NCBI GenBank assembly: GCA_945877765.1
Contig: CAMDWQ010000006.1
Location: forward strand, 15,046 to 79,045
DNA: 64,000 nt
From: Candidatus Omnitrophota bacterium
GTDB lineage: Bacteria; Omnitrophota; Gorgyraeia; 2-02-FULL-51-18
Direction of reading: 5' to 3'
Shown: one piece after another, positions 15,004 to 55,930 of the stretch
Numbering within the stretch: the first letter of the stretch is position 1
Layout: each line of letters starts with the position of its first letter
Program-made: the position numbers and the translations under genes
Notes under the pieces: model-generated
What the model was told of the DNA's origin: nothing
The model's database searches: none
What the model saw: the letters and a program-made list of their open reading frames with translations, nothing else

Positions 15004-16014
15004 ATGCGTGAACTTCTTGAAAAAATTCAAAAAACAAACCAGCGGCATGATCTATTTCGCAAAAACGATGCTCTCGTAGTTGGTGTTTCCGGAGGACCGG
15101 ATTCAACCGCCCTGTTTCTGCTTCTAGCAAAACTTAAAAAAAAATACAATCTACGCTTGATCGCGGCGCACATAAACCACCATTTTTCAAAAAAAGAATC
15201 CATGAGATTCGAACGTTTTGCCTCGGAGTTGGCGCGTCGGCATAACGCCCCTTTTTTTAAGAAATCGATAAGTGTCCGGGTTTTGGCAAAAAAAAATAAA
15301 AAAACTGTCGAAGAGATGGGTCGCATTGCCCGCTATGATTTTTTTCGCAAAGTAGCTTCTTTGAACAACGCAAAAATTATCGCCACGGCGCACACCATGG
15401 ATGATCAAGCCGAAACCATGCTGATGCGGGTCGCGCGCGGCGCTGGCCTAAAAGGTCTTGCTGGCATTCCCGTCAAAAGGAGGGAGGGCGCCTGCACCGT
15501 TGTGCGACCGCTCATCGGAGCCTCTAAGAAACAGATTTTAACTTTTCTAAAAAAAACCCGGGAATCGTTTTGTGTGGACAAGTCTAACCAGAGCGACATT
15601 TTCACGCGCAATCGTGTCCGAAACCGCCTTTTGCCCTGGGCCAAGAAAAATTTAAATCCTCGCGTTGTGGAAAGCCTGTCTGATCTAGGCTGTATCTGTT
15701 GGGAGGCGCAGAGTTTATTGGAGAAGCTGGGCCAAAAGGCGCTTGGCTCATGCCTTCTAGAAAAAAAACCATCCAGCGTTGTCCTGTCTGCAAAAAAAAT
15801 GGCACGCTTAGATCCTGCCGTTTGCTCGGAGACTATTTTTGCGGCATTAGCGCTTTTGACCGGCGGCCGGCTTCGCTTCGGATCTACCCACATCGGCGCG
15901 GTTCGGTCAATCCTGGAATCCCCTGAAAGCAACCTGGAAACTCACCTGCCCGGGCCTATCGTTGTCGCCAAAAATGGGGGCGCTTTGAGATTCTTTGACA
16001 CCTCCAAAAAATAA
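15004..16014 (+). CDS. tilS: tRNA(Ile)-lysidine synthetase
   Basis: PP-loop LVVGVSGGPDSTALFLLL, 336 aa. Confidence 0.8.
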   Translation: MRELLEKIQKTNQRHDLFRKNDALVVGVSGGPDSTALFLLLAKLKKKYNLRLIAAHINHHFSKKESMRFERFASELARRHNAPFFKKSISVRVLAKKNKKTVEEMGRIARYDFFRKVASLNNAKIIATAHTMDDQAETMLMRVARGAGLKGLAGIPVKRREGACTVVRPLIGASKKQILTFLKKTRESFCVDKSNQSDIFTRNRVRNRLLPWAKKNLNPRVVESLSDLGCICWEAQSLLEKLGQKALGSCLLEKKPSSVVLSAKKMARLDPAVCSETIFAALALLTGGRLRFGSTHIGAVRSILESPESNLETHLPGPIVVAKNGGALRFFDTSKK

Positions 16015-16061
16015 GCTTATAATCCCTAAAATCACTAAAAAGAAGGGGGGTCTCTAATTTC

Positions 16062-16238
16062 ATGTCAAAAGTAGAAGTTGGTCCTAATGAACCGTTGGAA
16101 AAAGCACTAAGACGCTTCAAGAAAAAAATTGAGCGTGAAGGAATTTTGAAGGTTCTGAAAGCGCGTAAACACTACGAAAAGCCCAGCGAAATCAAACGCC
16201 GCAAAGCCCGCGCTTCAAAAAGCCGCAAGAAATTCTAA
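16062..16238 (+). CDS. rpsU: 30S ribosomal protein S21
   Basis: 58-aa ORF absent from the track (below 60 aa). MSKVEVGPNEPLEKALRRFKKKIEREGILKVLKARKHYEKPSEIKRRKARASKSRKKF matches the S21 pattern. GAAGGGGGG RBS. Translated by hand. Confidence 0.8.
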   Translation: MSKVEVGPNEPLEKALRRFKKKIEREGILKVLKARKHYEKPSEIKRRKARASKSRKKF

Positions 16239-16292
16239 TTAAATGACTTCTCTCTGGCGCAGCCGCCAGGGGTGAGGCCAAAGGAACTTAAA

Positions 16293-16685
16293 ATGTCAGA
16301 AGAATCCCGCCAGGAAACCCCCGGCATCATCATCAAGAAAAAAGTGGATGAATCCTGGAAAAACGCGGTTGAGAAAGAAAAAACAACCGCGTTTTCTCCT
16401 TCTGAGTCTCCACAAGCCCCAAAAGAGGCGCCACCATCAGATCCAGGATTTTTGTACTTTATCTCAGGCTTGGGCATGCAAGCGCTTGCTTCTATGGGAG
16501 AGATTCCGGATGATAGCGGTCTAACTGGTCCCATTGATCTGGACCAAGCCAAGCAACTCATTGATGTCATCGAGATGTTGTCCAAAAAAACCAAGGGAAA
16601 TCTTTCACCCGAAGAAGAGAATGCCTTCCGAGAGCTTCTTCGCCAACTACGTCTTAAATTTGTCCAAAAAAGCCGAGCTGTCTAA
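16293..16685 (+). CDS. small acidic protein, possibly DUF1844 family
   Basis: ATG at 16293 after AAAGGAA (the track begins at GTG 16272). C-terminal pattern GEIPDDSG...QAKQLIDVIEMLSKKTKGNLSPEE resembles what I recall of DUF1844. Unverified. Confidence 0.4.
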   Translation: MSEESRQETPGIIIKKKVDESWKNAVEKEKTTAFSPSESPQAPKEAPPSDPGFLYFISGLGMQALASMGEIPDDSGLTGPIDLDQAKQLIDVIEMLSKKTKGNLSPEEENAFRELLRQLRLKFVQKSRAV

Positions 16686-16691
16686 CGTATC

Positions 16692-17921
16692 ATGACTGCT
16701 ATCGTCAGTTTTGTGGCTGGCGCGCTACTGGGTATCCTCGGCGCTTTTTTGTGGGGAGCCGCCCAACAGTCAACCGCCAAAAAAATGGCGTCGGGCCTTT
16801 ACGAGGATGCTGAAAAAAGACAAAAAGAACAGATCGCCGAGATCGTCAAAAATCTTCAAGCCCAATTTGGCAGTCTCTCGCTTGACGCCCTTTCAAAACA
16901 AACCGATCAGTTTTTAGCGCTAGCCGGATCAAAATTCCAAAATGAAAGAGAGCTCAGCGGAAAAGAGCTTGAAACCAAAAAAATCTTAATTGATCATCAG
17001 CTAGAATCAATGAAGGATAAGCTCCAGAAAGTTTCAGATTTAGTCCAAAGCCTGGAAAAGGACCGCGAGAATAAGTTTGGAGAGCTGACCAGCGAACTTA
17101 AAAATACCAACCAGCAGGTAACCGCGCTTCATCAGGCAACAAGCACACTCAATGAGGCACTTGCCAATTCACGTGCCAGGGGACAATGGGGGCAGCGAAT
17201 GGCCGAGGATGTGCTTCGCTTGGCTGGCTTTGCAGAGAATATTAACTATTTAAAAGAAAAAACGATTGAGGGTATTGGCTCGCGCCCCGACATCACGTTC
17301 CTCCTGCCCAAAAATTTAAAACTCAATATGGACGTGAAATTTCCCTACGATAATTATATGCGTTTTTTGGAAGCTCCGTCGGACGCGGATAAAGAAAAAT
17401 TTAAAAGTATTTTTTTTAAAGATGTCCGCGCCAAGCTCAAAGAAATTACTTCCCGCGATTACATCAACCCCGAGCAAAACACGGTCGACTACGTCATCTT
17501 ATTTGTTCCCAACGAGCAGATATTTTCATTCATTCATGAACAAGATCGGGACCTATTGGATTTGGGTTTAAAAAATAAAGTAATTTTTTGTTCGCCCATT
17601 ACTTTGTTTGCGGTATTAGGGATCATCCGGCAATCAGTCGATAACTTTAGCCTAGAAAAAACATCGAATGAGATTTTGTCTCTCTTGGGTACGTTTAAAT
17701 CTCAGTGGGAGAAGTTTCTTCAGAAGCTGGATGTGGTGGGTAAAAAAATTGAGGACGCACAAAAAGAATACTATCTGCTTTCTACTACCCGCAAAAGCCA
17801 ACTTGAGAAACCGCTCAACAAAATCGATGCCCTAAGACAACAAAGAGGCCTTCTTGTATCACCCGAAGACCCTGTCCTTGAGATAGTTAGCGAAGAAGAC
17901 ACCTCTTCTGAGCACCCCTAA
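16692..17921 (+). CDS. rmuC: DNA recombination protein RmuC
   Basis: N-terminal transmembrane helix, long coiled-coil, C-terminal RmuC-like block (RPDITFLLPKN...VKFPYDNY), 409 aa. Confidence 0.8.
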   Translation: MTAIVSFVAGALLGILGAFLWGAAQQSTAKKMASGLYEDAEKRQKEQIAEIVKNLQAQFGSLSLDALSKQTDQFLALAGSKFQNERELSGKELETKKILIDHQLESMKDKLQKVSDLVQSLEKDRENKFGELTSELKNTNQQVTALHQATSTLNEALANSRARGQWGQRMAEDVLRLAGFAENINYLKEKTIEGIGSRPDITFLLPKNLKLNMDVKFPYDNYMRFLEAPSDADKEKFKSIFFKDVRAKLKEITSRDYINPEQNTVDYVILFVPNEQIFSFIHEQDRDLLDLGLKNKVIFCSPITLFAVLGIIRQSVDNFSLEKTSNEILSLLGTFKSQWEKFLQKLDVVGKKIEDAQKEYYLLSTTRKSQLEKPLNKIDALRQQRGLLVSPEDPVLEIVSEEDTSSEHP

Positions 17922-17950
17922 AAAACGCTTTTTTATCGCATTTCTTTTAA

Positions 17951-17991
17951 TTGCAAATCATGGAGGCGGTTTGTTATAATCCTTATAACAA
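17951..17991 (+). promoter_or_regulatory. sigma70-like promoter (TTGCAA-18 nt-TATAAT) overlapped by a 9-3-9 perfect palindrome
   Basis: TTGCAA at 17951-17956, TATAAT at 17975-17980. Palindrome ttgttataa-tcc-ttataacaa at 17971-17991 covers the -10 box. About 110 nt upstream of the 18099 operon. Confidence 0.45.
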
Positions 17992-18098
17992 GATTTAGTG
18001 GTGCTTTTCGTTTTGACCACGACTAATAGATGTTTATAGATATTTCGCAACCTTTTTTTTATGCGCAATTGCCGCCTGATAGCGGTGGAGATTAAAAA

Positions 18099-18338
18099 AT
18101 GGAGCAGCTTATAGCGAGTTTCCCAAAAAATAAATTCGAGGAAGTGCGGGTGGCAATCAAAGAATTTAAAGGTTATGATTTATTGGATATCCGGGTGTAT
18201 GCCGCTACCAAAGACGGCGAGGAAAAGGTTCCTACGGGAAAAGGAATCTCTGTCAACGTCAGTCATTTTGCTGAGCTCAAGCAAGCTTTTTTGGCAGCCG
18301 AAAAGGTTTTGAAGGAGAACAATCTTCTTCATGAGTAA
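18099..18338 (+). CDS. PC4/YdbC-like small ssDNA-binding-fold protein
   Basis: 79 aa. EVRVAIKEFKGYDLLDIRVYA...PTGKGISV resembles the bacterial YdbC / eukaryotic PC4 fold pattern. GGAG RBS. Confidence 0.5.
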   Translation: MEQLIASFPKNKFEEVRVAIKEFKGYDLLDIRVYAATKDGEEKVPTGKGISVNVSHFAELKQAFLAAEKVLKENNLLHE

Positions 18339-19167
18339 AATTATTGAAGCGCTTAAGGGCAGCCGACTATCTACAGCGGATCAGCCTACTCAAGAAAAAG
18401 AGATTCTTTTTGAGAGGACCAGCCGTGAAATGACACAGGAGCAGCTGGCTGAGATCTATTTTTCAGCCACGGGAAAACCCAAGCCCGTAGAAGCCCCGAT
18501 CATCATCCGTGTGATCGAAAAACAAAGAATTGCTTCCGTTGTGCCATGGATAATCACATCGCTGGCTTTTTTGATAACTGCTTTTAGTCTTTTTTCTACC
18601 AAACGAATCTTTGTGGATATCCGTGTCGTGGATGAAAAAACAGCTTATGCGGTCAGCCAGAGCCAACCCACGGAAACTAATGACGAAAAAGTGCTTTCAA
18701 GTGAGAGTAGCCACTTTGATGAAGATCAAGGCAATAGCATTTCTTTGCAAGAATTTATTTTTGAGGGTGCCGCCTATCTCAAAAGCTCGCGAAACAGCAA
18801 CCTCTTGACCCTCGTCAACAGCTCGGTAGCACCTTTTGCGCGAGCAACCATCAATTTTGATCGGCCGCTCAATATGCGCAGAGGAAAGATTGTGTTCTAC
18901 GCCAAAGGGGCGAAGGGCGGGGAAAATTTGGCGCTGGCCCTGAAGGATGAAGACAACAACCAAGCTTTTTTGAGGGGTAAGAGGTACCCCTATCCTCAAG
19001 GACTTACCTCTTCATGGCAAAGAACGGAAATCGCGCTAACAGATCTTTCTAGTGAATTTAATCTTAAGAGCGTGACTACGCTCCGCTTTGAATTTGGATC
19101 AAAAGACACCGCTAACCGCCCCGGTGATACCATCCTCATCCGAGACCTTCGGTGGTTTTCAAACTAA
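18331..19167 (+). CDS. membrane-anchored protein, function unknown (candidate ParA partner)
   Basis: 278 aa. Roughly 80-aa N-terminal cytoplasmic region starting MSKIIEALKGSR, one transmembrane helix (VVPWIITSLAFLITAFSLFST), and a ~190-aa exported C-terminal domain. Start overlaps the upstream stop. Confidence 0.45.
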   Translation: MSKIIEALKGSRLSTADQPTQEKEILFERTSREMTQEQLAEIYFSATGKPKPVEAPIIIRVIEKQRIASVVPWIITSLAFLITAFSLFSTKRIFVDIRVVDEKTAYAVSQSQPTETNDEKVLSSESSHFDEDQGNSISLQEFIFEGAAYLKSSRNSNLLTLVNSSVAPFARATINFDRPLNMRRGKIVFYAKGAKGGENLALALKDEDNNQAFLRGKRYPYPQGLTSSWQRTEIALTDLSSEFNLKSVTTLRFEFGSKDTANRPGDTILIRDLRWFSN

Positions 19168-19171
19168 CGTC

Positions 19172-20254
19172 ATGATAATCATTTCGGTCTCTAATCAAAA
19201 AGGGGGTTGCGGCAAGACGACCACAGCCATCAATCTGTCAGCGTCACTAGCATCCCTTGGCAAGAAGACCTTGCTAGTGGATCTGGATCCTCAGGCCCAC
19301 GCGACGTACGGCATGGGTATTCATGCAGAAAAAATCACAGGCTCCATGTACAATGTCATGACGGACCAGGCCGAAAAAAAGAAGAAATTTATCGAAGATA
19401 TCCTAGTCCCTGCCGGAGAAGGGTTGGATGTGGCGCCGTCCCACATCCTACTAAGCACAATCGAGCAGGAGTTCACCAACAAAGAAGAGTCTGTTTCCAG
19501 GCTTCATCAGATTCTTCACAGCCTATCATTTCCGTATGATTTTATAGTCATTGATTGCCCTCCAAGCCTCGGTTTTTTGACTTTCAATGCGCTGAGAACT
19601 TCTGATCTTGTAGTTGTGCCAGTCGAATTAAGTTCTTTTTCACTAATGGGTGTGGACAAGCTCCTTAGCATGGTGGAACTAATCCGTGTCAAACTTCAAC
19701 ACACACCCAAAGTATTAGCGCTGCCAACGATGGTCGATATGCGTACCAATCTTTCGCGCCACATGATGGACCAAATCCGAGAATCCTTTGGCGAACATGT
19801 GCTTTCAACCGCAATTCGTCAGACAGTCCACGTGCGCGAATCCCAGATGAAGGGGGTGCCGCTATTACGTCATTGCCCGAAATCCAAAGGAACGATTGAC
19901 TACCTAGTTTTGGCCCAGGAAATCATGGCTAAAACGCTTCCTGAGTCTGAGTTTGCAGCGCTGACGCCGCCTAAGGGACGAGAGGTGGTTACCAATTTTC
20001 TTCGAGATTTTTCCGTTAGAACTGAAAGTGCTAGCGAAGTCTACATTGTGGGCGATTTTAATCATTGGTCTGTTTCTGAACAATCAAGGCTCTGGGAGAA
20101 GGAAAAAGGCATTTGGCAAAAAAAAGTTTTTTTGGGCCCAGGAAAACACCGTTACAAATTCATCATTGATGGCAATTGGGTAACAGACCCCTCCAACGAT
20201 CACATCGAGCCAAATCCCTACGGCGGCGTTGATTCTGTGCTTGAAATTACCTGA
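19172..20254 (+). CDS. ParA/Soj-family ATPase fused to a C-terminal CBM48 / AMPK-beta glycogen-binding-like module
   Basis: ATG at 19172 (the track starts earlier, at 19088). Deviant Walker A box KGGCGKTT in MIIISVSNQKGGCGKTTTAINL. C-terminal ~90 aa (VYIVGDFNHWSV...WQKKVFLGPGKHRYKFIIDGNWVTDPSN) match the CBM48/AMPK1_CBM pattern. Confidence 0.75.
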   Translation: MIIISVSNQKGGCGKTTTAINLSASLASLGKKTLLVDLDPQAHATYGMGIHAEKITGSMYNVMTDQAEKKKKFIEDILVPAGEGLDVAPSHILLSTIEQEFTNKEESVSRLHQILHSLSFPYDFIVIDCPPSLGFLTFNALRTSDLVVVPVELSSFSLMGVDKLLSMVELIRVKLQHTPKVLALPTMVDMRTNLSRHMMDQIRESFGEHVLSTAIRQTVHVRESQMKGVPLLRHCPKSKGTIDYLVLAQEIMAKTLPESEFAALTPPKGREVVTNFLRDFSVRTESASEVYIVGDFNHWSVSEQSRLWEKEKGIWQKKVFLGPGKHRYKFIIDGNWVTDPSNDHIEPNPYGGVDSVLEIT

Positions 20255-20257
20255 TTC

Positions 20258-20803
20258 ATGCAGGCAAAACTGCCCTACCGAATCGTTGAGTCCAGGTTAA
20301 TTTATGATGGTCACATGGTCCGCCTTGTCAAAGATCGCTTTATTCTAAACAGCTTAAAAAATAAAATCATCACCCGAGAGCTTGTGCAGCACCCAGGGGC
20401 TGTGGCTATTCTTCCTTTTGCCGACAAAAAACATCTTATTCTGCTGCGGCAGTTTCGCTATTCAGCAAAGGGAGATTTATGGGAAATTCCAGCCGGAACA
20501 CTTGAAAAAAATGAAAAGCCCGCTTCCTGTGCTAGGCGAGAGCTCGAGGAAGAGACGGGTTTTCGCGCTGCCCGCTTAAAACGCCTGACTCGATTTTTAG
20601 CTGCACCGGGTATCTGCAATGAAATGATGACGCTTTACCGCGCTGACGGCCTTACGCCTGGCCAAAAGAAACTTGATCATGACGAATTCATTGAACACAA
20701 AAAAGTTTCTGTTTCTAAAGCGCTTCAAATGGTCCGGGGTGGTCAGATTCGTGACGCTAAGAGCATCATCGGCATTCTTTGGGCGGGCTATTTTCATGAT
20801 TAA
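20258..20803 (+). CDS. NUDIX hydrolase (ADP-ribose pyrophosphatase-like)
   Basis: Nudix box GTLEKNEKPASCARRELEEETGF, 181 aa. Confidence 0.8.
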   Translation: MQAKLPYRIVESRLIYDGHMVRLVKDRFILNSLKNKIITRELVQHPGAVAILPFADKKHLILLRQFRYSAKGDLWEIPAGTLEKNEKPASCARRELEEETGFRAARLKRLTRFLAAPGICNEMMTLYRADGLTPGQKKLDHDEFIEHKKVSVSKALQMVRGGQIRDAKSIIGILWAGYFHD

Positions 20804-21359
20804 AGAAGCTAAAATATCCTCCGTGGTATCGCTTTTCCCATTACCTCAGTACGTCGTGGTCTTAGAGGACCTCGAAAAAACACGTCTTGTCCCTATTTGG
20901 ATCGGAGTGCACGAGGGCACTGCCATTGCCCTTGAGATGCAAAAAGAGCGTTTTCCTCGGCCACTCACACACGATCTCTTGGTAAATATTATCCGGGCAA
21001 TGGGTGGCCAAGTGGAAAAGGTGGTTATTAGCGACTTAAAAGATAATAGTTTTTATGCCATTCTTTTTATTCGCCAGGGAGATCGCGTGTTTGAGATGGA
21101 TGCCAGGCCATCTGATTCCTTGGCGATTGCGGTACGAGTCCATTGCCCCATTTTTATCGACGAGAAAGTCCTCCAAAAGTGCCCGCCCTTGTCATCGGGC
21201 CCTATTTCCTCCGAGGACATCGAAAAATTTAAAAAAGACTTAAAAAACATGACGCCGGAAGAATTTTTTAAGGGGTTGGAGGAAGCGCCGCCCAACGAGG
21301 AGCCTAACCCAGAATCCTACGAGGATGACGAAACCTCGGAAGACGATGAAGACAAGTAA
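20796..21359 (+). CDS. bifunctional nuclease family protein (BFN / DUF151)
   Basis: ATG at 20796 overlaps the NUDIX stop. PIWIGVHEGTAIALEMQKERFPRPLTHDLL is typical of BFN. Acidic C-terminal tail. Confidence 0.65.
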   Translation: MIKEAKISSVVSLFPLPQYVVVLEDLEKTRLVPIWIGVHEGTAIALEMQKERFPRPLTHDLLVNIIRAMGGQVEKVVISDLKDNSFYAILFIRQGDRVFEMDARPSDSLAIAVRVHCPIFIDEKVLQKCPPLSSGPISSEDIEKFKKDLKNMTPEEFFKGLEEAPPNEEPNPESYEDDETSEDDEDK

Positions 21360-21441
21360 GATTAATCAGTTTTAATCCAATTTTGCTTATTAATTATCTC
21401 GTGCTAGAATTGACCGATAAAACAGAAAGGAAATACCCGCT

Positions 21442-21810
21442 ATGAAAAACATCAAGATGATCTTCGTTGCAGTTTTTTTTATTTCGACGTTGGCGGTAAC
21501 AGCGCAAGCGCAAGAGTATGCCGCTCGATCGGCAGAAAAATTGGGGCGCGGCTTAGCCGATACCACGCTTGGATGGACAGAGGTTTTTAAGAGTCAGGAA
21601 AAAATAACCGACAAGCACGGCCTAGTTGCCGGCATTTTTTGGGGAACCACGGATGGTCTTGTGAATTCCGTAAAGAGAACAGCGACGGGTCTGGGCGAAA
21701 TCGCTACTTTTGGAATTAACAACCCGGAAAGCGTTAACGAGGATGACAAGCCTGAGTTTCCGCTAACCAATAATCGTGCGGGTTACCGACCAAAAAATTA
21801 CGAGTTTTAA
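21442..21810 (+). CDS. small secreted protein, tentatively exosortase-system-associated TIGR04073-like family (paralog 1)
   Basis: Signal peptide. KLGRGLADTTLGWTEV...GTTDGLVNSVKRTATGLGEIATFG and a C-terminal YRPKNYEF tail. Paralogous to 48880..49221 and 63775..64000. The family assignment is from memory. Confidence 0.45.
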   Translation: MKNIKMIFVAVFFISTLAVTAQAQEYAARSAEKLGRGLADTTLGWTEVFKSQEKITDKHGLVAGIFWGTTDGLVNSVKRTATGLGEIATFGINNPESVNEDDKPEFPLTNNRAGYRPKNYEF

Positions 21811-21919
21811 TTTTTTCCAAACGGCTCGCCCAGTTTTTGAGATTGTGCTCAAAGGGAGAGCTTGTCCTAGATAGGAATTCTCTTTCAAGTGCCAGAATGC
21901 CTGCGGTCTTACCCAGCCT

Positions 21920-23944
21920 ATGACTAAAAAATATATCCTCAAGAGCATTCCCTCCAACGCATCGCTAAGCATTGATTACCAAAATGAACTCAATGCCTCG
22001 CAGTATGAAGTAGTGACCACCGCGGACGGACCGTGCCTGGTTCTGGCCGGTGCCGGCAGCGGTAAAACTCGCACGCTGATTTACCGCGTCGCTTATCTTT
22101 TAGAAAAGGAGGTTCGTTCGGAAGAGATACTTTTGGTGACCTTTACTAACAAGGCCGCTAATGAGATGAAAACTCGTGTGGAGGGGCTTCTTCAGGGGAA
22201 AGCCAAAAATCTTTGGTGCGGCACATTTCACCATATCGGAAACCGTCTGCTAAGAGCCTATGGAAATCTTATAGGACTTGCTCCTGACTTTGGCATTCTC
22301 GATGATGAGGACAGCCGTGACTTGGTGAAAGCCTGCATCAAGCCCTTCGAACCCAATGGACGCGATATGAAATTTCCAAAACCCGGGGTGGTGCAATCTG
22401 TTTTAAGTTTTTCTGTCAACGCCAAGCGCCCAGTGCGCGATGTGGTGCTTCAAAATTATCCTCACTTGATTTCATTCATTCCTGAATTTGAAAAAATAAA
22501 AATTCAATATGATGAAAAGAAGAAGAAAAGCAACAATTTGGATTATGACGATCTCCTGCTTAAGTGGGTTGAACTTTTAAAAAAATCAGACGTGGCCAGA
22601 GAAAAGTTGACACGCCAGTTTCGTTATTGTCTGGTGGACGAGTATCAAGATACCAATCGCATTCAGCATGAAATCATTCAAATTCTTTCCAGCCACCATA
22701 AGAATGTGCTCGTTGTCGGAGATGACGCCCAGTCGATCTATTCGTTTCGCGCTGCGGACATTAAAAACATCCTCGCGTTCCCTGAATATCACGAAAACGC
22801 AAAAATTTTTAAATTAGAAACCAACTACCGATCCACTAAGCCAATACTTGAATTGGCAAACAAAAGCATCAGCCATAACGTGCATCAGTTTCCCAAGACA
22901 TTGAAAAGCCTGCAAAAAGAGGGTTCGCTGCCACAGTTGGTAAAAGTCCGAGACGCTCGCCAGCAGGCGGCCTTTATCGGCCAGAGAATCATCGAGCTAG
23001 GCGAGACGGGGGCTGAGCTTTCAGAGATTGCGGTACTATTTCGAGCTCACTATCAAGCGGCCGAGCTGGAACTAGAGCTAACCAAGCGGGGGATTCCCTA
23101 TTTAGTAAGGGGAGGTATCCGTTTTTTTGAGCAGGCGCACATCAAAGATGTTTTGGCCTACCTAAAAATTATCTCCAATCCCGCCGATGAGTTGGCTTGG
23201 AGCCGCGCGCTCACGCAGCAGCCCGGTATAGGCGCTGGTTTCGCCGAAAAAATTTTTAAGGCGGTCGAAAATGAAAAAGGCGATCTCGTCAAGGTGTCGT
23301 CGGTTGAATTTGGTCAAAACATGCCGCCTCGTGTGCGTGACGGACTTAACGGCTTTAAGAAAATTTTGAAGAGCTTGGTGCGCGAAGGGATTCAAGATCA
23401 TCCGGACATGTTGATTGAAGAAGTGCTCGATAAGGGGTACAACAAGCATGTTTTGATGAATTTTGAAAACGCGCAGGAGCGTCTGGAGGATTTGAGAGAG
23501 CTGGTCAACTTCGCTCACACGTACAAATCTCTGAAGGATTTTCTGGCCGACGCGACACTGCGCGAGGGTTTTCGGGGTGAGAGTTTCGCCAAGGACGGTG
23601 AGCAGGGAGAGCTTTTTCAGCAATTGGTGCTTTCCACCATTCATCAGGCCAAGGGGCTTGAATGGAAGGCGGTATTTGTGATTAGCCTCTCTGAGGGTCT
23701 TTTTCCTCATGCCAAATCCATGGCTTCGGAGGAAAATTTGGAGGAAGAGCGAAGGCTTTTTTATGTGGCGGTAACCCGTGCCAAGGAAGAACTGGTGCTG
23801 ATTCACCCGATGACGCGGTTTGACTATCAAGCGGGGACTATCATCAACCGACCCTCCGTTTTTATTGCGGAACTGCCGGCCAGTGTCTATGATGAAATTG
23901 AGATCGAAGAAAGCGAAGAAGAAAAAACAATCTACCTGGAGTAA
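21920..23944 (+). CDS. UvrD/PcrA-family ATP-dependent DNA helicase
   Basis: Walker A LVLAGAGSGKTRTL, 674 aa, helicase motifs throughout. Confidence 0.85.
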   Translation: MTKKYILKSIPSNASLSIDYQNELNASQYEVVTTADGPCLVLAGAGSGKTRTLIYRVAYLLEKEVRSEEILLVTFTNKAANEMKTRVEGLLQGKAKNLWCGTFHHIGNRLLRAYGNLIGLAPDFGILDDEDSRDLVKACIKPFEPNGRDMKFPKPGVVQSVLSFSVNAKRPVRDVVLQNYPHLISFIPEFEKIKIQYDEKKKKSNNLDYDDLLLKWVELLKKSDVAREKLTRQFRYCLVDEYQDTNRIQHEIIQILSSHHKNVLVVGDDAQSIYSFRAADIKNILAFPEYHENAKIFKLETNYRSTKPILELANKSISHNVHQFPKTLKSLQKEGSLPQLVKVRDARQQAAFIGQRIIELGETGAELSEIAVLFRAHYQAAELELELTKRGIPYLVRGGIRFFEQAHIKDVLAYLKIISNPADELAWSRALTQQPGIGAGFAEKIFKAVENEKGDLVKVSSVEFGQNMPPRVRDGLNGFKKILKSLVREGIQDHPDMLIEEVLDKGYNKHVLMNFENAQERLEDLRELVNFAHTYKSLKDFLADATLREGFRGESFAKDGEQGELFQQLVLSTIHQAKGLEWKAVFVISLSEGLFPHAKSMASEENLEEERRLFYVAVTRAKEELVLIHPMTRFDYQAGTIINRPSVFIAELPASVYDEIEIEESEEEKTIYLE

Positions 23945-25188: not shown

Positions 25189-26049
25189 ATGACAGAAAAA
25201 ATAACTAATCCTGTTCGAAAGCTTTTTTTTGGGCTGTTTATATTCCCGCTAGTGATCGCGGTGGGAATGGCAGTGCTTCTTTGCAGTGTGGTGCTGGTTA
25301 CCAATGAAAAAGAGACGCCAGAAACTCTTATCGGCGCCATCAAATCAGGCACGCCGTCCAAGCGCTGGCAAAAAGCGTTTGAACTTTCCAATGAGCTGAA
25401 TAAAACTCATGGTCAGGCACCGCTGAACGCAGGCTTACAAAAAGAAATTCTCTATATTTTAAATGATTCTAGCGGCTACGACGAAAAAACACGCAGTTAT
25501 ATGGCAATGGCACTACATCATTTTCCAGGCAATGAATCAGTGACAGCGTTACAGAAAGCACTTAAAGATTCTTCACAAGAAGTTCAGATTGGCGCGCTCT
25601 GGACGCTAGGTTCTCTTGGCGCCAAAACAGCCACTTCGGACATTGAGTCTTTTTTGACCGCTGAAAAATCAGAGCTTCGTAAAATGGCCGCTTATATTTT
25701 AGGTGTGTTAGGCGAGAAGTCATCGGTACCAAAAATACGACCTCTTTTAAATGATGTGACGCCAGACGTCCAGTGGAATGCGGCGCTTGCTTTGGCGCGC
25801 CTTGGTGACATTTCAGGCTACAAGGTGCTAACGGGAATGCTGGATCGCCGCCAATTTTCTGAAGCAGGAACACAAGAAGCTCAGATTGAAGCGGCGATGA
25901 TCAACGCTATCAAAGGATTGACCTTGATTCAAAACCCCGAATCGATTAAAATCTTTGAATCTATTTCGCGTGAAGATAAGAATATGAAAGTGCGTCAAGC
26001 CGCGATTGATGCGCTTAACTATCAAAAAAAAATGAATAAGAATCTATGA
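25189..26049 (+). CDS. HEAT-repeat (PBS-lyase type) protein with N-terminal transmembrane helix
   Basis: Repeated ...VQ..A..ALG.LG... HEAT-like units, 286 aa. Stop overlaps the Rieske start (ATGA). Confidence 0.6.
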   Translation: MTEKITNPVRKLFFGLFIFPLVIAVGMAVLLCSVVLVTNEKETPETLIGAIKSGTPSKRWQKAFELSNELNKTHGQAPLNAGLQKEILYILNDSSGYDEKTRSYMAMALHHFPGNESVTALQKALKDSSQEVQIGALWTLGSLGAKTATSDIESFLTAEKSELRKMAAYILGVLGEKSSVPKIRPLLNDVTPDVQWNAALALARLGDISGYKVLTGMLDRRQFSEAGTQEAQIEAAMINAIKGLTLIQNPESIKIFESISREDKNMKVRQAAIDALNYQKKMNKNL

Positions 26050-26648
26050 GCGACGGCACTACTCAACCAGCAACAACAGGTCCCACAGCGATTCCGCCGC
26101 AAACTCCATCTACCGTCAAACCAGCGCCATCCAATCCCGCCAATACCGTTATGGGACCTGATAAAATTGATCGGCGTACGTTTATCTCGTGGGCAGGGGT
26201 GGCGTGGGTAAGTTTTGCCGCGGCCACCGGAGGGGCGCTTTCCATTGTTCTACGTTTTCTTTTCCCGAATGTTTTATTTGAACCCCCGACCGCGTTCAAG
26301 GCCGGCTTACCCAGTGATTACGAAGTGGGTGTGGTGGATGAGCGTTGGAAAGAAAAGTTTGGCGTATGGATGGTCCGCACAGCCGAAGGAATCTATGCCT
26401 TGTCGACCACTTGCACTCATCTAGGCTGCACACCCAATTGGCTCCCGGGTGAAGCAAAGTTTAAATGCCCCTGCCACGGAAGCGGTTTTTATAAAACCGG
26501 AATTAATTTTGAGGGACCTGCGCCACGACCTTTAGAAAGATACCGTATTTCTTACTCAGAAGACGGACAGATCGCGATTGATATGAGCAAAAAATTTCAA
26601 CAGGAAAAAGGGGAATGGAACAACCCCGAATCCTTCCTGACGGTCTAA
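26046..26648 (+). CDS. Rieske [2Fe-2S] protein of a cytochrome bc-type complex
   Basis: Rieske boxes CTHLGC and CPCHGS. Tat-like N-terminus RRTFISWAGVAW. Confidence 0.85.
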   Translation: MSDGTTQPATTGPTAIPPQTPSTVKPAPSNPANTVMGPDKIDRRTFISWAGVAWVSFAAATGGALSIVLRFLFPNVLFEPPTAFKAGLPSDYEVGVVDERWKEKFGVWMVRTAEGIYALSTTCTHLGCTPNWLPGEAKFKCPCHGSGFYKTGINFEGPAPRPLERYRISYSEDGQIAIDMSKKFQQEKGEWNNPESFLTV

Positions 26649-26677
26649 GACGGTTACACCCTATATAAGGAAGCGCT

Positions 26678-27478
26678 ATGGCAGATCCCGCACCAAAACC
26701 AAAATTTGACCTCGGAAAATACATCACTGAGACGCAGCTTTACAAATCCATGTTCCGCCATGGCTACACCACGTCGGACCGTGATCGCGCGCTGTCGGTC
26801 ATGACCAATGTCTTTTTCCATCTGCACCCGGTAAAAGTCCGAAAGTCGGGGGCACGTTTTGGATTTACTTGGTGTGCCGGCGGGCTTTCTTTTTTTGTGT
26901 TCCTGACACTGGTCGTCAGCGGCATTCTTTTGATGTTCTACTACCGGCCGACCGTGGAGCATGCGTATAATGATATCTTAGCGCTTCGCGAACACGTCCC
27001 CTTTGGAATTATGCGCGAACTTCACCGCTGGGGCGCCCACGCCATGATTATCACGGTGTGGCTGCACATGTTTCGTGTGTTTATGACGGGATCTTACAAA
27101 CCTCCGCGCGAATTTAATTGGGTGATCGGTGTGCTTCTTTTGGTTTTAACAATGCTTTTGAGTTTTACCGGTTATTTGCTTCCATGGGATCAGCTGGCGA
27201 TGTGGGCAATCACCGTCGGTAGCAACATGGCGCGCGCGACGCCCTTTTTGGGGCATGAGGGGCCCGGGGCTGCGCTTTTAGCGATCGGCGATATACAACT
27301 GGTCACGTCCGGCAGCGATGTACGCTTTGCTTTGCTGGGTGGACGCTTTGTGGGAGCGGGCGCTTTGCTTCGTTTTTATATTTTACACTGCGTGGCCATT
27401 CCGACCATTCTCGTTGTCTTAATGTCTGTCCATTTCTGGAGAATTCGCAAGGACGGCGGAATCAGCGGGCCCTTATAA
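26678..27478 (+). CDS. cytochrome b (b6-like N-terminal heme-binding subunit)
   Basis: 266 aa. Conserved His in transmembrane helices ([18 protein letters not shown]) and the PWDQLAMWA motif. Confidence 0.85.
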
Positions 27479-27481
27479 TCT

Positions 27482-28561
27482 ATGGAAGCGCTCAAACACT
27501 TTATTGACTCCGTTTCGTCTCCCGTTACCATTTTTACATTAGCCACGGTTCTTTTCGTCCTGTTTGTCAGCTTTCCCCGCATTTCTACCTCAAAACCCGT
27601 AAGTCTGCTGCTTCTTGCTTTGTTCCTTGCTTTCTTTGGATTGGGGCTCACCGATGAGCATTTTCGCGGCATCGTAACCACCCCCGACAATGTGCCGATC
27701 GTCGGTCTTATCGTGGTGTTTGGCTATTTCACATGGTACGCCATGAGAAAAGCCGTGATCAATGACATGCGAATGGAAAAAGGGGAGCCCACGGTCGAAC
27801 AAACCGAGACCAACGAAAAAGTCCTCGTGTTTCCCTATCTTATTTTTATCGAATTTGTAGTGGCGCTGGCTTATGGAGCAGGGCTTGTTCTGTGGTCGAT
27901 TTTTCTAAAAGCGCCGTTGGAGGAACCTGCCAATCCCATGGTTTCGCCCAATCCCAGCAAAGCGCCCTGGTATTTCTTGGGCTTGCAGGAGATGCTAGTT
28001 TATTTTGACCCCTGGATTGCCGGCGTGCTCCTGCCGACATTTATCATCATCGGCCTCTGCGCAATTCCTTATATCGATAGAGACACTTCGGGTTCAGGTT
28101 TTTACTCGTTTAAAAACCGCCGCTGGGTCATCACGACTTATCTTTTTGGCTTCTGGATTCTATGGATTCTCTTGATCGTCATGGGCACTTTCCTGCGCGG
28201 GCCCAACTGGAACTTCTTTGGGCCTTTTGAAGTATGGGATGTTCATAAGGTGGTGCCCTTGTTAAACGTCAATCTTTCCGAACTCATCTGGATCAAGTGG
28301 CTTGGCATCGGTTTGCCGAAAATGTGGTTTGTCCGAGAATTACCGGGAATTCTTATAGTTCTAGGCTTTCTTTTTATCACGCCCGTGATTTTGGCGAAGA
28401 CTGTGCTGAAGTCAGCTTTTAAAAAATTGGATCCGATTCGTTTTGGCATCCTGGTCCTGTTGGCGCTCATGATGCTTTCGCTCCCCATTAAAATGTATCT
28501 ACGGTGGGGCTTTAATTTAAAATACATCGTCGCCATTCCTGAGTTTTTCTTTAATATTTAA
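27482..28561 (+). CDS. cytochrome bc complex subunit IV-like (cytochrome b C-terminal domain) membrane protein, extended
   Basis: PWYFLGLQEMLVYFDPWIAGVLLP matches the PetD / cytochrome b C-terminal motif. 359 aa with extra transmembrane helices. Confidence 0.65.
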   Translation: MEALKHFIDSVSSPVTIFTLATVLFVLFVSFPRISTSKPVSLLLLALFLAFFGLGLTDEHFRGIVTTPDNVPIVGLIVVFGYFTWYAMRKAVINDMRMEKGEPTVEQTETNEKVLVFPYLIFIEFVVALAYGAGLVLWSIFLKAPLEEPANPMVSPNPSKAPWYFLGLQEMLVYFDPWIAGVLLPTFIIIGLCAIPYIDRDTSGSGFYSFKNRRWVITTYLFGFWILWILLIVMGTFLRGPNWNFFGPFEVWDVHKVVPLLNVNLSELIWIKWLGIGLPKMWFVRELPGILIVLGFLFITPVILAKTVLKSAFKKLDPIRFGILVLLALMMLSLPIKMYLRWGFNLKYIVAIPEFFFNI

Positions 28562-28562
28562 C

Positions 28563-31418
28563 ATGGCCAAACAATCCCCGACCCTCTACAGCGTTGCCAA
28601 GACATTTATTTGGTTTGCGGTGGTTAGCCTCGTTCTGACAGGCTGCCTGGTTGGCATCGTCATGACCGACTACAACCGCGAGTGGAAAAATTACCAGAAA
28701 AAATTTACTCAGCTCAAGATTGAAAAGGCCCGGGAAGAACTGAAGCTGGCAGCGCAGGGAATTGACAGCACCGAACTTGCCAGGTTTGAGACGGAGCTCA
28801 AAGCCGCTAAAATAGAGACCGCTTCTCGTCGGGCAGAGTCCGCCAGCCTGCAAAAAGAAAGCGCTGTCTTGGATACGAAAATTGCAAAAGCCAAAGCCAA
28901 GCACCAGGACCTTAAACAATTTTTAGATTCCGACCGCTATTACTTTGAAGAGTACCGCGAAAAAAAAGATACTCGCTCGGCGGATTACGAGAAAAAAGTA
29001 AATGGCTGGCTTCCGCGCGTGGCGGCGGCCAAATTGGATTTGGATGAGCTTCAAAAAGAAAAAGATGCCAAAGACGCCAAAATTGAAAGCTTTAGCGCCA
29101 AAGAAAAAGAAATTGAGCGCTCTATTGACAAATTGCTGGCGGATAAAACCCGCTTAGAAAAACGTATCAAAAATATTCAGCCAAGCCTAGCCAAAGATAT
29201 TTTGAACGCGCCTATGCTGGATTTCGTAGCGCCCACGATTAAAGTTCAGCAGATCGTTTTGGACAACCTTCAAGACGACTATCATTTTGCCAAGGTTCAA
29301 AAAGTCGACCGCTGCACCACTTGCCATCAAGGGATCGACCAAAAAGGCTTTGAAGACGCACCTCAGCCTTTCCGCACGCACTCCAAAATTGAACTTTATC
29401 TCGGATCCGCTTCTCCTCACCCGATGGAAACAATCGGCTGTACGGTTTGCCATAGCGGTAGCGGTCATTCGGTTGACTTTACCAATGCCGCACACACGCC
29501 ACGTGACGAAAATCAGGCGAAGGAGTGGAAGAAAAAATACAATTGGCACGAGCTTGAAAAATGGGAACATAAAATGCTTCCCGCGGGCACCACCCAGTCT
29601 TCCTGTGTTAAATGCCATAGCGGCGTAATAAAAGTGCCTCAGGCCGATCAATTAAATCGCGGCAGGAGGCTGGCCGAAACATTAGGCTGTTTCAATTGTC
29701 ATAAAATTAAAGGTTTTTCGACGGCGGGCGGCTCAGTTGCTGGGGGCGAAAATCTATGGAAGGTGGGGCCCGACCTTCAGTCTGTCGGCAGTAAGCTTTC
29801 AGAGGAATGGATCGCCAAATGGCTCGAGGACCCGGCAAACTTTAGACACTCCACCAAAATGCCCAAGGTTTTCAATCTTTCCAATACTTCTTCACCCGAG
29901 GATATGCAAAAGAATGCCGCGGCGATTCAGTCCATTGCTTCCTATCTCATTCATAATTCTGAGCCCGTCAATCTTTTGACGCCGCCCGTTCCAGGCAATG
30001 CGGCTAACGGCGAAAAACTGGTTAAGACGCTAGGCTGCCTTGGCTGCCACACGGGCGCAGGCAAGAATGCCGCTGATTTTGGGCCCGAGCTCACGGGGAT
30101 GGGAAGCAAAACCAGCGCAGCATGGATTTATACCTGGGTGAAAAACCCTAAACATATTTCTCCGGAGACCCGCATGCCGGACTTGCGCTTGTCCGACGAA
30201 GAAGCTTCGGATATCACGTCCTATTTAATAAGCTTACGCAATGAGCCGTTTGAAAACAAAACCGCGATGCCGGTAAAGCCGGAAGTTGTCGAGGAGATGA
30301 TCCTAACGAATCTTCAGGGAACCTTGAGTTCCGCCGAAGCGCGGGCAGAGCTTGAAAAAATGTCCGCTCGGGACAAGCTTCAGTATTTAGGCAAAAAATC
30401 GATTGTTCACCAAGGCTGCTTCACCTGCCACGCCATCAAGGGTTTTGAGGACGTAAAACCGATCGGCGCCGAACTTACCAATGAGGGCCAAAAAAATATT
30501 CACCAATTTGATTTTGGTTTTAGCGATATTCCTCGCACGCGGCATGACTTTATACGTCAAAAACTTAAAGATCCGCGCCTCTACGACCATGGCAAAGAAA
30601 AAGCTTATTACGATAAGCTTCGTATGCCGCAATTCCAATTGACGGATGAGGAGATTGACGCGCTCACCGTGTTTATCTTAAGCTTGACAGAAGAGCAGAT
30701 TCCTTTAGAAATGCAAAAAAGGCTAAACACCGCTGAGACAGAAATAGAGCACGGTCGGCTCCTTGTGAGTAAATTAAATTGTCATGGCTGTCACACGCTT
30801 GACGGCCAAACGGGCGTTATCCGTGAAATCACCGAAGACGCGGGCCAAATGCCGCCGATTCTTGAGGGGGAGGGTGGTAAAGTCCAGGAGAAGTGGCTAC
30901 GGCAATTTTTGGCGGATCCAAAACCAATACGGCCCTGGATTCAGTACCGCATGCCTACTTTCCATTTTTCGGGTGAGGAATTGACGGTGCTCAACAAATA
31001 CTTTAATCACTTATCTCACCAGGAGCTTTCGTACGAGGGCATCCAGATTCCCGAAACATCGGTAGAAAATCTAGCCGCAGGCAAACAGCTATTTGATACT
31101 TTTCAGTGTATCAAGTGCCATCAAATCAGCCAGGAAAGTGCCGCGATGGGCTCATCGTTTCTCGCTCCTGATCTGGCAATGACCAAGAGCCGTTTAAAAC
31201 CAGGCTGGGTCCATACTTGGCTGGAGGATCCCCAGCAGCTTGAACCTGGGACCATGATGCCCACTTACTTTAGTGACGGCCAGAGCCCTGTGGCTGATTT
31301 ACTAGAAGGGGATGCCAAAAAGCAGATTGATGCTATTCGCGCCTATCTGTATCGGTACGAACCCTCATCTACTCCCGCCGACTCCAAAATTACCCCAAAA
31401 GAAGCCAGCGAAAAATAA
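28563..31418 (+). CDS. membrane-anchored octaheme cytochrome c
   Basis: Eight CxxCH motifs: CTTCH, CTVCH, CVKCH, CFNCH, CLGCH, CFTCH, CHGCH, CIKCH. N-terminal transmembrane helix then ~200 aa of K/E-rich coiled coil. 951 aa. Confidence 0.85.
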   Translation: MAKQSPTLYSVAKTFIWFAVVSLVLTGCLVGIVMTDYNREWKNYQKKFTQLKIEKAREELKLAAQGIDSTELARFETELKAAKIETASRRAESASLQKESAVLDTKIAKAKAKHQDLKQFLDSDRYYFEEYREKKDTRSADYEKKVNGWLPRVAAAKLDLDELQKEKDAKDAKIESFSAKEKEIERSIDKLLADKTRLEKRIKNIQPSLAKDILNAPMLDFVAPTIKVQQIVLDNLQDDYHFAKVQKVDRCTTCHQGIDQKGFEDAPQPFRTHSKIELYLGSASPHPMETIGCTVCHSGSGHSVDFTNAAHTPRDENQAKEWKKKYNWHELEKWEHKMLPAGTTQSSCVKCHSGVIKVPQADQLNRGRRLAETLGCFNCHKIKGFSTAGGSVAGGENLWKVGPDLQSVGSKLSEEWIAKWLEDPANFRHSTKMPKVFNLSNTSSPEDMQKNAAAIQSIASYLIHNSEPVNLLTPPVPGNAANGEKLVKTLGCLGCHTGAGKNAADFGPELTGMGSKTSAAWIYTWVKNPKHISPETRMPDLRLSDEEASDITSYLISLRNEPFENKTAMPVKPEVVEEMILTNLQGTLSSAEARAELEKMSARDKLQYLGKKSIVHQGCFTCHAIKGFEDVKPIGAELTNEGQKNIHQFDFGFSDIPRTRHDFIRQKLKDPRLYDHGKEKAYYDKLRMPQFQLTDEEIDALTVFILSLTEEQIPLEMQKRLNTAETEIEHGRLLVSKLNCHGCHTLDGQTGVIREITEDAGQMPPILEGEGGKVQEKWLRQFLADPKPIRPWIQYRMPTFHFSGEELTVLNKYFNHLSHQELSYEGIQIPETSVENLAAGKQLFDTFQCIKCHQISQESAAMGSSFLAPDLAMTKSRLKPGWVHTWLEDPQQLEPGTMMPTYFSDGQSPVADLLEGDAKKQIDAIRAYLYRYEPSSTPADSKITPKEASEK

Positions 31419-55737: not shown

Positions 55738-55930
55738 TGTCAGCGATCCGGCTGCCCTATCTCTGCTTTTTAGCAGAACTTAGGCCCGTGATTTTGCGTC
55801 CTACCGTTTCCAGTAGTTTGCCTTTTTTAACAATCATGCATTACAAAAAGAGCTTAATCTGATCTTATTAAATATCTAGTGGAAGTATATATGACAATAT
55901 TTGTTATTTCAATGGGGTGATCAAAAAAGT

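Follow-up and report, generated by a model that had tools for sequence, protein, structure and literature searches.

A widespread ParA-CBM48 fusion and its membrane-anchored neighbour in Omnitrophota: a candidate module for handling alpha-glucan

What a ParA-family ATPase might be doing with a carbohydrate-binding module fused to its C-terminus is the question raised by a short string of genes in a Candidatus Omnitrophota genome. The DNA analysed is a stretch of 64,000 nucleotides (nt) from contig CAMDWQ010000006.1, referred to here as the window. An earlier sequence-only reading of it had described three co-directional open reading frames (ORFs), overlapping or nearly abutting, and all three were found at the positions it gave. 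They lie on the + strand and encode a PC4/YdbC-like small protein of 79 amino acids (18099–18338), presumed to bind single-stranded DNA; a membrane protein of 278 amino acids (18331–19167) with a cytoplasmic N-terminus, one membrane helix and an external beta-sandwich, called the partner below; and a protein of 360 amino acids (19172–20254), ParA-CBM48, in which a Soj-like ATPase with the motif KGGCGKTT is followed by a C-terminal CBM48. The reading that we favour, while granting it somewhat less than an even chance, is that ParA-CBM48 is an orphan, non-chromosomal ParA module which grips alpha-glucan through its CBM48, with the membrane partner as its switch.

The proposal that the C-terminal ~90 amino acids have a CBM48/AMPK-beta fold was borne out both by profile search and by structure prediction. 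Two Pfam models matched above their cut-offs, AMPK1_CBM with 45.7 bits (cut-off 26.8, E 7.5e-12, residues 285–359) and CBM_48 with 25.4 bits (cut-off 22.4), and the AlphaFold model shows a confident all-beta C-terminal domain with a predicted local distance difference test score (pLDDT) of 85–91. This AMPK-beta-type CBM48 takes up residues 277–360 (20000–20254, +, including the stop codon) and is joined to the ATPase by a disordered linker (residues ~256–276; 19937–19999, +), in which pLDDT falls below 50 at residues 258–274 and whose columns are variable in the family alignment. When the domain was searched alone, the top matches were the CBM structures of AMPK beta1 and beta2 (E 1.5e-8), followed by modules of pullulanase, SEX4 and GlgB. 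The glycogen contacts of rat AMPK beta1, which we take to be W100, K126, W133, L146 and N150, could be followed across the alignment, where the first three correspond to W299, K329 and W336, L146 to Tyr or Phe at position 350 and N150 to Asp354. Of the 80 sequences extending over it, 79–80 keep the Trp/Lys/Trp triad, those of lineages without the membrane partner included, and the aromatic residue at 350 and Asp354 are likewise kept in essentially all family members. This conservation of the sugar contacts, even where the partner is missing, is the best reason to regard the module as still an alpha-glucan binder, and on the strength of its sequence the CBM48 is predicted to bind cytoplasmic alpha-glucan (glycogen).

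The ATPase domain (residues 1–255; 19172–19936, +) is marked by the signatures KGGCGKT, PQAHAT and LGFLTFNAL. It had been described as a canonical ParA/Soj with a deviant Walker A motif, and the Pfam match to AAA_31 (E 1e-52) as well as the invariant catalytic residues agree with this. Its best solved relative is Myxococcus xanthus ParA (8RAY, 170 bits), with the Soj proteins of Thermus and Helicobacter pylori at 143 and 134 bits, and Foldseek gave template modelling scores (TM-scores) of 0.81–0.87 to the ParA/Soj structures 8RAY, 1WCV and 6IUB; MinD, ParF and McdA do not exceed 60 bits. A reading of the protein as a BY-kinase (CapA/CapB-like) was also considered and rejected, as the tyrosine-kinase models reached 35–37 bits against cut-offs of 108–231 and the C-terminal tyrosine cluster is lacking.

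Residues of M. xanthus ParA that had been studied experimentally (PMC12462528) were traced through 81 non-redundant members of the family. None of the catalytic lysines and aspartates (K10, K15, D37, D39, D128) varies across the 81 loci, and the cysteine of Walker A (KGGCGKT) is invariant too. Of the pocket that receives the ParB peptide (M. xanthus numbering), V116 has become Ile or Leu, L150 and L187 are kept, L192 is Leu or Ile and both L152 and L155 have become invariant Phe, the corresponding residues of the family ParA being I/L97, L133, F135, F138, L170 and L/I175. Where the ParB arginine would lie, two of four residues never vary, Y81 and E117 (Y60 and E98 here), and the other two are changed, E82 to Asn and D110 to His or Asn. 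The position of E176 holds an invariant Met. Since the catalytic residues are invariant and the pocket is kept but re-lined, ParA-CBM48 should be an active, dimerising ATPase whose partner pocket has changed in specificity.

A candidate for what fits this pocket is encoded next door. Only 176 homologues of the membrane protein could be detected, none of them named and every one of Omnitrophota type. The protein begins with the motif MSKIIEALK (residues 1–9; 18331–18357, +), which has the ParB-like pattern hydrophobic-x-K/R-x-hydrophobic-x-x-hydrophobic: its M1-x-K3-x-I5-x-x-L8 matches the motif L11-x-R13-x-L15-x-x-L18 that was defined experimentally in ParB (PMC12462528). The tip motif occurs in about 40 of the 53 complete partner proteins, distant ones included. 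After a variable stretch there follows a second cytoplasmic motif, TQEQLAEIYF (residues 35–44; 18433–18462, +), which reads TQEQLA(D/E)IYF in the family; T35, Q36, L39, Y43 and F44 are invariant in the partner alignment, and the motif is found in some form in at least 41 of the 53 complete proteins. The membrane helix spans residues ~70–92 (18538–18606, +), or 71–88 in the structure model. Beyond it lie a disordered linker of ~45 residues and a confidently modelled beta-sandwich of ~140 residues, a beta-jelly-roll (residues ~140–278; 18748–19164, +) with the fold of carbohydrate-binding modules. Foldseek matched this domain to CBM30 at E ~1e-7, and the Pfam CBM30 model reached 23.8 bits with it and 26.2 bits with a distant homologue, both under the cut-off of 27.

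The sequence-only reading had given this protein a basic cytoplasmic N-terminus of ~80 amino acids, one helix and an exported domain of ~190. The single helix stood, but what lies outside is the linker plus the sandwich. The N-terminus is placed in the cytoplasm because a strongly K/R-rich segment precedes the helix in the distant and divergent members, but in the window protein this part has ~69 amino acids of balanced charge (11 K/R and 10 D/E). The role proposed for it, that of a partner stimulating the ATPase, fits a conserved neighbour with a ParB-like tip, although the tip is not basic and the gene, as described below, is not present in every lineage. Judged by its sequence, the N-terminus is a credible candidate for a ParA-activating peptide.

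The gene neighbourhood was surveyed with profiles of the window proteins and with ORFs called in 85 loci (81 of them distinct) with 10-kb flanks, 1.24 Mb in total. In 57 of the 81 distinct loci, the gene next upstream of ParA-CBM48 is that of the membrane partner, with a spacing of 4 nt or less or with an overlap. This arrangement recurs in three contexts. The first, that of the window, runs tilS-rpsU-DUF1844-rmuC-(PC4)-partner-ParA-NUDIX-...-BFN-...-uvrD, the second purL-purQ-partner-ParA and the third STAS/PilZ-M23 peptidase-(large helicase)-partner-ParA-HhH-GPD. Because the tight adjacency persists in three unrelated surroundings, it argues for a functional pair, the membrane protein and ParA-CBM48, as the conserved core in Omnitrophota. 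The PC4 gene is confined to the RmuC-linked clade of the first context, where it precedes the membrane gene in most loci, and is missing from five of them (L003, L017, L018, L028, L030) and from all divergent clades. As it is found in this context only, and not in all loci even there, PC4 is regarded as accessory.

A number of further features were seen around the pair. In the divergent Omnitrophota clade of the third context, a STAS-PilZ protein and an M23 peptidase precede it (L050, 4928–6150; also L057, L062 and L071), which hints at links to cyclic di-GMP (c-di-GMP) or the cell wall. In the window (15004–23944) and in loci L001–L036 the pair is set within a string of DNA-handling genes (rmuC, PC4, NUDIX, SNase, BFN nuclease, uvrD), and in another clade it stands beside a large UvrD-like helicase and a HhH-GPD glycosylase. 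These DNA-handling neighbours could be relevant to nucleoid association or could be inherited gene order. In Desulfobacterota the surroundings of ParA-CBM48 differ between genomes, and a conserved protein of 145–190 amino acids (MPLIHKRRIWWEPV...) is encoded downstream of it (L077, 11285–11722; L079, L082, L083, L084, L086). Against Pfam this protein gave a single match of 18.7 bits, below the cut-off; it is a candidate for a lineage-specific partner.

Partition genes were sought with phmmer, using an approximate sequence of Bacillus subtilis Spo0J; the GERRxRA motif was searched for as well, and so was the parS consensus with up to 2–3 mismatches. There was no ParB-like ORF, GERRxRA motif, parS site (up to 2 mismatches) or second ParA in the window or in the 1.24 Mb of flanks. 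The ParA-CBM48 locus is not a ParABS locus, and in none of the 85 loci does the fusion adjoin parB or parS, the setting that the sequence-only reading had associated with a plain chromosome-partition ParA.

In a search that covered each species by one genome, with the family-specific peptides SNQKGGCG and LGFLTFNAL as queries, at least 194 species-level genomes, mostly of Omnitrophota, proved to encode a ParA-CBM48 relative, among them GCA_022072175.1, with a contig of 1.59 Mb, and GCA_964606485.1. Sequence databases hold thousands of relatives of the protein, and the fusion is represented there by hundreds of clusters at 90% identity; it is not rare. The best 120 relatives are all full length (355–373 amino acids), 60–79% identical and equipped with both domains, and those that are named belong to Candidatus Omnitrophota. 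Among the best 80 genome loci, ~45 are labelled Omnitrophota, 28 'uncultured Planctomycetia' and six Desulfobacterota-type or Binatia; the proteins of these six are 41–44% identical and have kept their full length. The large Desulfobacterota branch includes 120 clusters that are 80–93% identical, with the CBM in all of them. The loci with the Planctomycetia label (among L005–L078) encode proteins of 45–79% identity, and this label is probably wrong, as many of these loci share the Omnitrophota gene order. ParA-CBM48 is a distinct, widespread and strongly constrained clade, not a one-off, which has been annotated generically ('AAA family ATPase', 'chromosome partitioning protein'). That the fusion had not been described holds as far as could be seen: literature searches, with most subscription journals outside their coverage, found no paper on a ParA-CBM48 protein or on a ParA system for glycogen.

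One metagenome-assembled genome, BS750m-G14, has two ParA-CBM48 paralogues (L062 and L080). The L062 copy keeps the membrane partner, while the other (L080, 2813–3895) lies directly behind a bactofilin gene (2405–2800; PF04519, E 3e-23) instead, an arrangement that recalls the link between bactofilin and ParA in Myxococcus. A search with the CBM48 alone against 1.8 billion representatives returned, as the nearest relatives outside the fusion, unnamed bacterial proteins with 3–18 tandem copies of the module, many of ~480 amino acids with four copies and one, from Epulopiscium, of 1812 amino acids. Since these tandem-repeat proteins filled the top matches, that search says little on the range of the fusion.

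If the favoured reading is right, the system might work as follows. ATP would bring ParA-CBM48 into a dimer, as is known for the ParA family and as the invariant catalytic residues suggest here. The dimer would present two CBM48 modules, each on a flexible linker of ~20 amino acids, and with their Trp/Lys/Trp contacts these would grip glycogen; it may also sit on the nucleoid, which is uncertain, one DNA-binding arginine being kept and one lost. The tip of the partner would dock in the re-lined pocket and trigger ATP hydrolysis, as the conservation of both motif and pocket suggests, and ParA on the granule would be set free or reset close to the membrane. The result would be glycogen particles that are spaced, anchored or shared between daughter cells. 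PC4 would be a clade-specific accessory, with the NUDIX and BFN genes riding on the ParA transcript.

ParA/MinD ATPases are a general bacterial means of placing large objects, and each new cargo has opened a line of work; to our knowledge, no machinery for positioning glycogen has been described in bacteria. The boldest form of the proposal is that this is the first ParA/MinD-type system for a polysaccharide storage body, in which CBM48 grips glycogen, a ParB-mimicking membrane tip switches the ATPase and very small cells space or share their granules. We consider it somewhat unlikely. If it were true, bacteria would be actively positioning glycogen as they do chromosomes, plasmids, carboxysomes and chemoreceptor arrays, and by a new layout in which ParA bears the domain for the cargo and a membrane protein is the activator. 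Should the module bind glycogen, the clade would point to active glycogen handling across hundreds of uncultured Omnitrophota and a branch of the Desulfobacterota. It also offers a natural experiment in partner specificity, the ParB-peptide pocket being kept but re-lined and the matching peptide standing on a membrane protein instead of ParB. What may be new is the cargo and the transplanted ParB-like peptide, the theme of a ParA with its partner being already known. As both proteins are small and either soluble or truncatable, the key claims are open to in vitro work without culturing.

Several observations weigh against the favoured reading. In classical ParA systems the activating partner sits on the cargo; here it would be ParA that holds the cargo, through a domain of its own, and a membrane protein that activates, a geometry unlike that of the standard ratchet. 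The Asn of motif 2 (M. xanthus N64, in PQGNAT) is replaced by His (PQAHAT) in 81 of 81 loci, a change of uncertain consequence. Nucleoid binding is doubtful: the position of M. xanthus R238 holds Ala, Thr or Ser and is never basic, although R191 (equivalent to B. subtilis R189 and M. xanthus R209) is kept in 80 of 81 members and R216 and K/R222 are conserved. The recurrence of the same membrane partner, which the sequence-only reading had suggested surveying, holds for the 57 loci mentioned but fails in all Desulfobacterota loci and in some purQ-linked Omnitrophota loci, where the gene is missing. The same survey did not bring out the glycogen genes that had been looked for beside the fusion: no signature of GlgA, GlgC, GlgP or GH13, and no glgA/B/C/P-type gene, was detected within 10 kb of any of the 85 loci or in the window by motif regular expressions, which divergent enzymes could escape, or by Pfam on 48 window ORFs. 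Most of the Omnitrophota genomes covered by PMC8542988 have the genes for making glycogen, but some appear to be without them, and there are trehalose-only genomes in that set.

The data were therefore also read in other ways. The membrane protein might be the cargo and not the regulator, with ParA placing an envelope protein together with the ligand of its external CBM-like domain (the cell wall or an apparatus for exported polysaccharide) and the CBM48 sensing alpha-glucan status as in AMPK; such a system would resemble BcsQ or the spatial regulators of MinD/MipZ type. This would suit a partner that is the most conserved neighbour and has a carbohydrate-binding-module fold outside the cell, the position of the pair behind the M23 peptidase and STAS-PilZ protein in the divergent clade, the paralogue next to bactofilin and the match to the Pfam BcsQ model (37.3 bits, cut-off 21.3). 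The NCBIfam BcsQ model (TIGR03371), however, reached only 67.5 bits, far under its cut-off of 157.85, and the ATPase is far nearer to Soj (170 bits) than to BcsQ or MinD (~60 bits at most). The adjacent genes include none for a cellulose or exopolysaccharide synthase, and loci without a membrane partner have kept the CBM48 and its sugar contacts just as well, all of which leaves this reading unlikely in our judgement. Quite improbable, too, is an ordinary chromosome-partition ParA (Soj) which has acquired an extra domain, with ParB and parS encoded elsewhere and the membrane protein an additional regulator or an unrelated neighbour. The nearest structures are indeed those of chromosomal ParA/Soj proteins, the database label points the same way, and most hydrophobic residues of the ParB pocket are kept, along with R191. 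On the other hand, the protein never adjoins parB or parS in the 85 loci, a partner of its own with a ParB-like motif is encoded beside it, and its departures from the chromosomal protein (N64 to His, L152 and L155 to Phe, E82 to Asn, E176 to Met, R238 to a non-basic residue) are invariant and fall on functional positions. The two paralogues of a single genome and the variable contexts in Desulfobacterota, which generally carry a canonical parAB, fit it no better.

We give still less credence to a CBM48 fold that binds no sugar and acts as a protein–protein module (for the TQEQLAEIYF motif, for example), a dimerisation domain or a regulatory surface. The CBM of AMPK makes protein contacts as well, the second cytoplasmic motif of the partner is strongly conserved and has no assigned role, and there is no linkage to glg genes; but the Trp/Lys/Trp triad, the aromatic residue at 350 and Asp354 are kept in essentially every member, and retention of the triad even in lineages without the membrane protein is hard to explain unless there is a sugar ligand. 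Finally, the three genes may be neighbours through inherited order alone, with no joint function. The genes from tilS, rpsU, DUF1844 and rmuC to NUDIX, BFN and uvrD are syntenic across one Omnitrophota clade, within which adjacency proves little as the whole region shares its gene order, and PC4 is facultative. For PC4 taken alone this explanation is quite possible. For all three genes it is highly improbable, the partner and ParA genes being abutted in two further contexts (purL-purQ and STAS/PilZ-M23-helicase).

The tight packing of the locus supports the operon that the sequence-only reading had described, but the string does not stop at three genes. PC4, the facultative first gene, was confirmed as PC4-like by Pfam (47.4 bits, cut-off 25, E 1.4e-12), with no match in NCBIfam. 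The start of the membrane gene overlaps its stop by 8 nt, and the ATG of ParA lies 4 nt past the stop of the membrane gene. This ATG, at 19172, is the start common to all homologues; a longer ORF call begins at a TTG inside the membrane gene. Three nt past the ParA stop begins a gene for a NUDIX hydrolase of 181 amino acids (20258–20803, +; Pfam NUDIX) in the YffH/AdpP (ADP-sugar pyrophosphatase-like) group, whose score with TIGR00052 (79.1 bits) is just under the cut-off of 79.55. Its stop is overlapped by 8 nt by the ATG, at 20796, of a gene for a bifunctional-nuclease-domain (BFN) protein (20796–21359, +; BFN_dom, E 3.9e-39). The NUDIX gene lies downstream of ParA in many core-clade loci, and the BFN gene is conserved downstream in the core clade. 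The operon probably extends past ParA to five genes, with NUDIX and BFN co-transcribed and BFN the last.

Upstream of it there is a promoter-like element, TTGCAA-18 nt-TATAAT with an upstream TG (17951–17980, +), ~119 nt before the start codon of PC4. Its -10 box is covered by a perfect 9-3-9 palindrome, TTGTTATAA-TCC-TTATAACAA (17971–17991, no strand), which is unique within the window (0.02 chance matches expected). Both elements had been noted before, with the suggestion of tight regulation. Promoter-like matches are no more frequent in the region than in shuffles (6 observed, 6.4 expected). The element is probably the operon promoter, since counterparts of the form TTGCxx-N17/18-TGTTATAAT stand upstream of PC4 in seven related loci (L001, L005, L006, L007, L008, L027, L029). 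The right arm of the palindrome was not found in any of the 13 related upstream regions examined, including those of the closest relatives, whose proteins are 76–79% identical. The palindrome is specific to this genome; its reading as a conserved operator was rejected on these grounds, and tight regulation is left without comparative support.

The remaining genes of the window are housekeeping and respiratory. Between the BFN gene and uvrD, a small secreted protein is encoded (21442–21810, +) which matches the exosortase-system-associated model TIGR04073 (56.1 bits, cut-off 50). Rieske and split cytochrome b genes (26046–28561) are followed by one for a multi-haem cytochrome c of 951 amino acids (28563–31418, +), downstream of which there are genes for haem-copper oxidase assembly, a CtaA/CtaB fusion and SCO1; these genes point to a respiratory chain of aerobic or microaerobic type in this member of the Omnitrophota. 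On the - strand, a c-di-GMP-I riboswitch of the GGC variant (55738–55831; 62.3 bits, gathering score 59) lies directly upstream of an ORF of 628 amino acids without a Pfam match (53851–55737), which would be a c-di-GMP-controlled protein.

Among the known systems, the chromosomal ParA/Soj proteins (M. xanthus 8RAY, Thermus thermophilus 1WCV/2BEJ, H. pylori 6IUB) are those with which ParA-CBM48 has most in common in its ATPase. They share the short (type Ib) ParA fold, the deviant Walker A with its signature lysine, the D-x-D motif and Walker B, with ~37–40% identity in the fold comparison and 130–170 bits by sequence. ParA-CBM48 differs from them in having no adjacent parB or parS, in the added CBM48 and in the invariant Walker A Cys, as well as in the motif-2 His in place of Asn, the two pocket Phe in place of Leu, the partly neutralised acidic site for the ParB arginine and the loss of the R238-type arginine. 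In McdA/McdB, which positions carboxysomes, and in the other orphan ParA systems PomXYZ, PpfA-TlpT and ParC-ParP, a ParA-family ATPase is likewise encoded beside a lineage-specific partner and serves a cargo other than DNA. In these the N-terminal peptide of the partner stimulates ATP hydrolysis, as may be expected here from the sequence of the tip; the partner, however, sits on the cargo and the ParA has no cargo domain, whereas ParA-CBM48 itself holds the presumed cargo domain and its partner is predicted to be anchored in the membrane. McdA has low sequence similarity to ParA-CBM48 (~46 bits).

The C-terminal module has its counterparts in the CBM of AMPK beta and in plant PTST, with which it shares the Pfam family AMPK1_CBM, the contacts equivalent to W100, K126 and W133 and the use of the fold for targeting or sensing by a protein that is not an enzyme of its own; in AMPK and PTST the CBM48 recruits proteins to glycogen or starch. 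Here it is bacterial and cytoplasmic and is fused to a P-loop ATPase instead of a kinase scaffold or a coiled coil, and it differs from AMPK beta at L146 (Tyr or Phe) and N150 (Asp). BcsQ-BcsR is another case of an ATPase of ParA/MinD fold tied to a polysaccharide and a membrane apparatus (TM-score ~0.8), but BcsQ is only ~17% identical and is without a CBM, and there are no bcs genes in the flanks. A parallel in purpose is found in PhaM and PhaF, which have no relation to ParA-CBM48 in sequence or fold and are not ATPases. They tether polyhydroxyalkanoate granules to the nucleoid so that daughter cells inherit the storage granule, which is conceptually the same task as that proposed here for ParA-CBM48 and glycogen.

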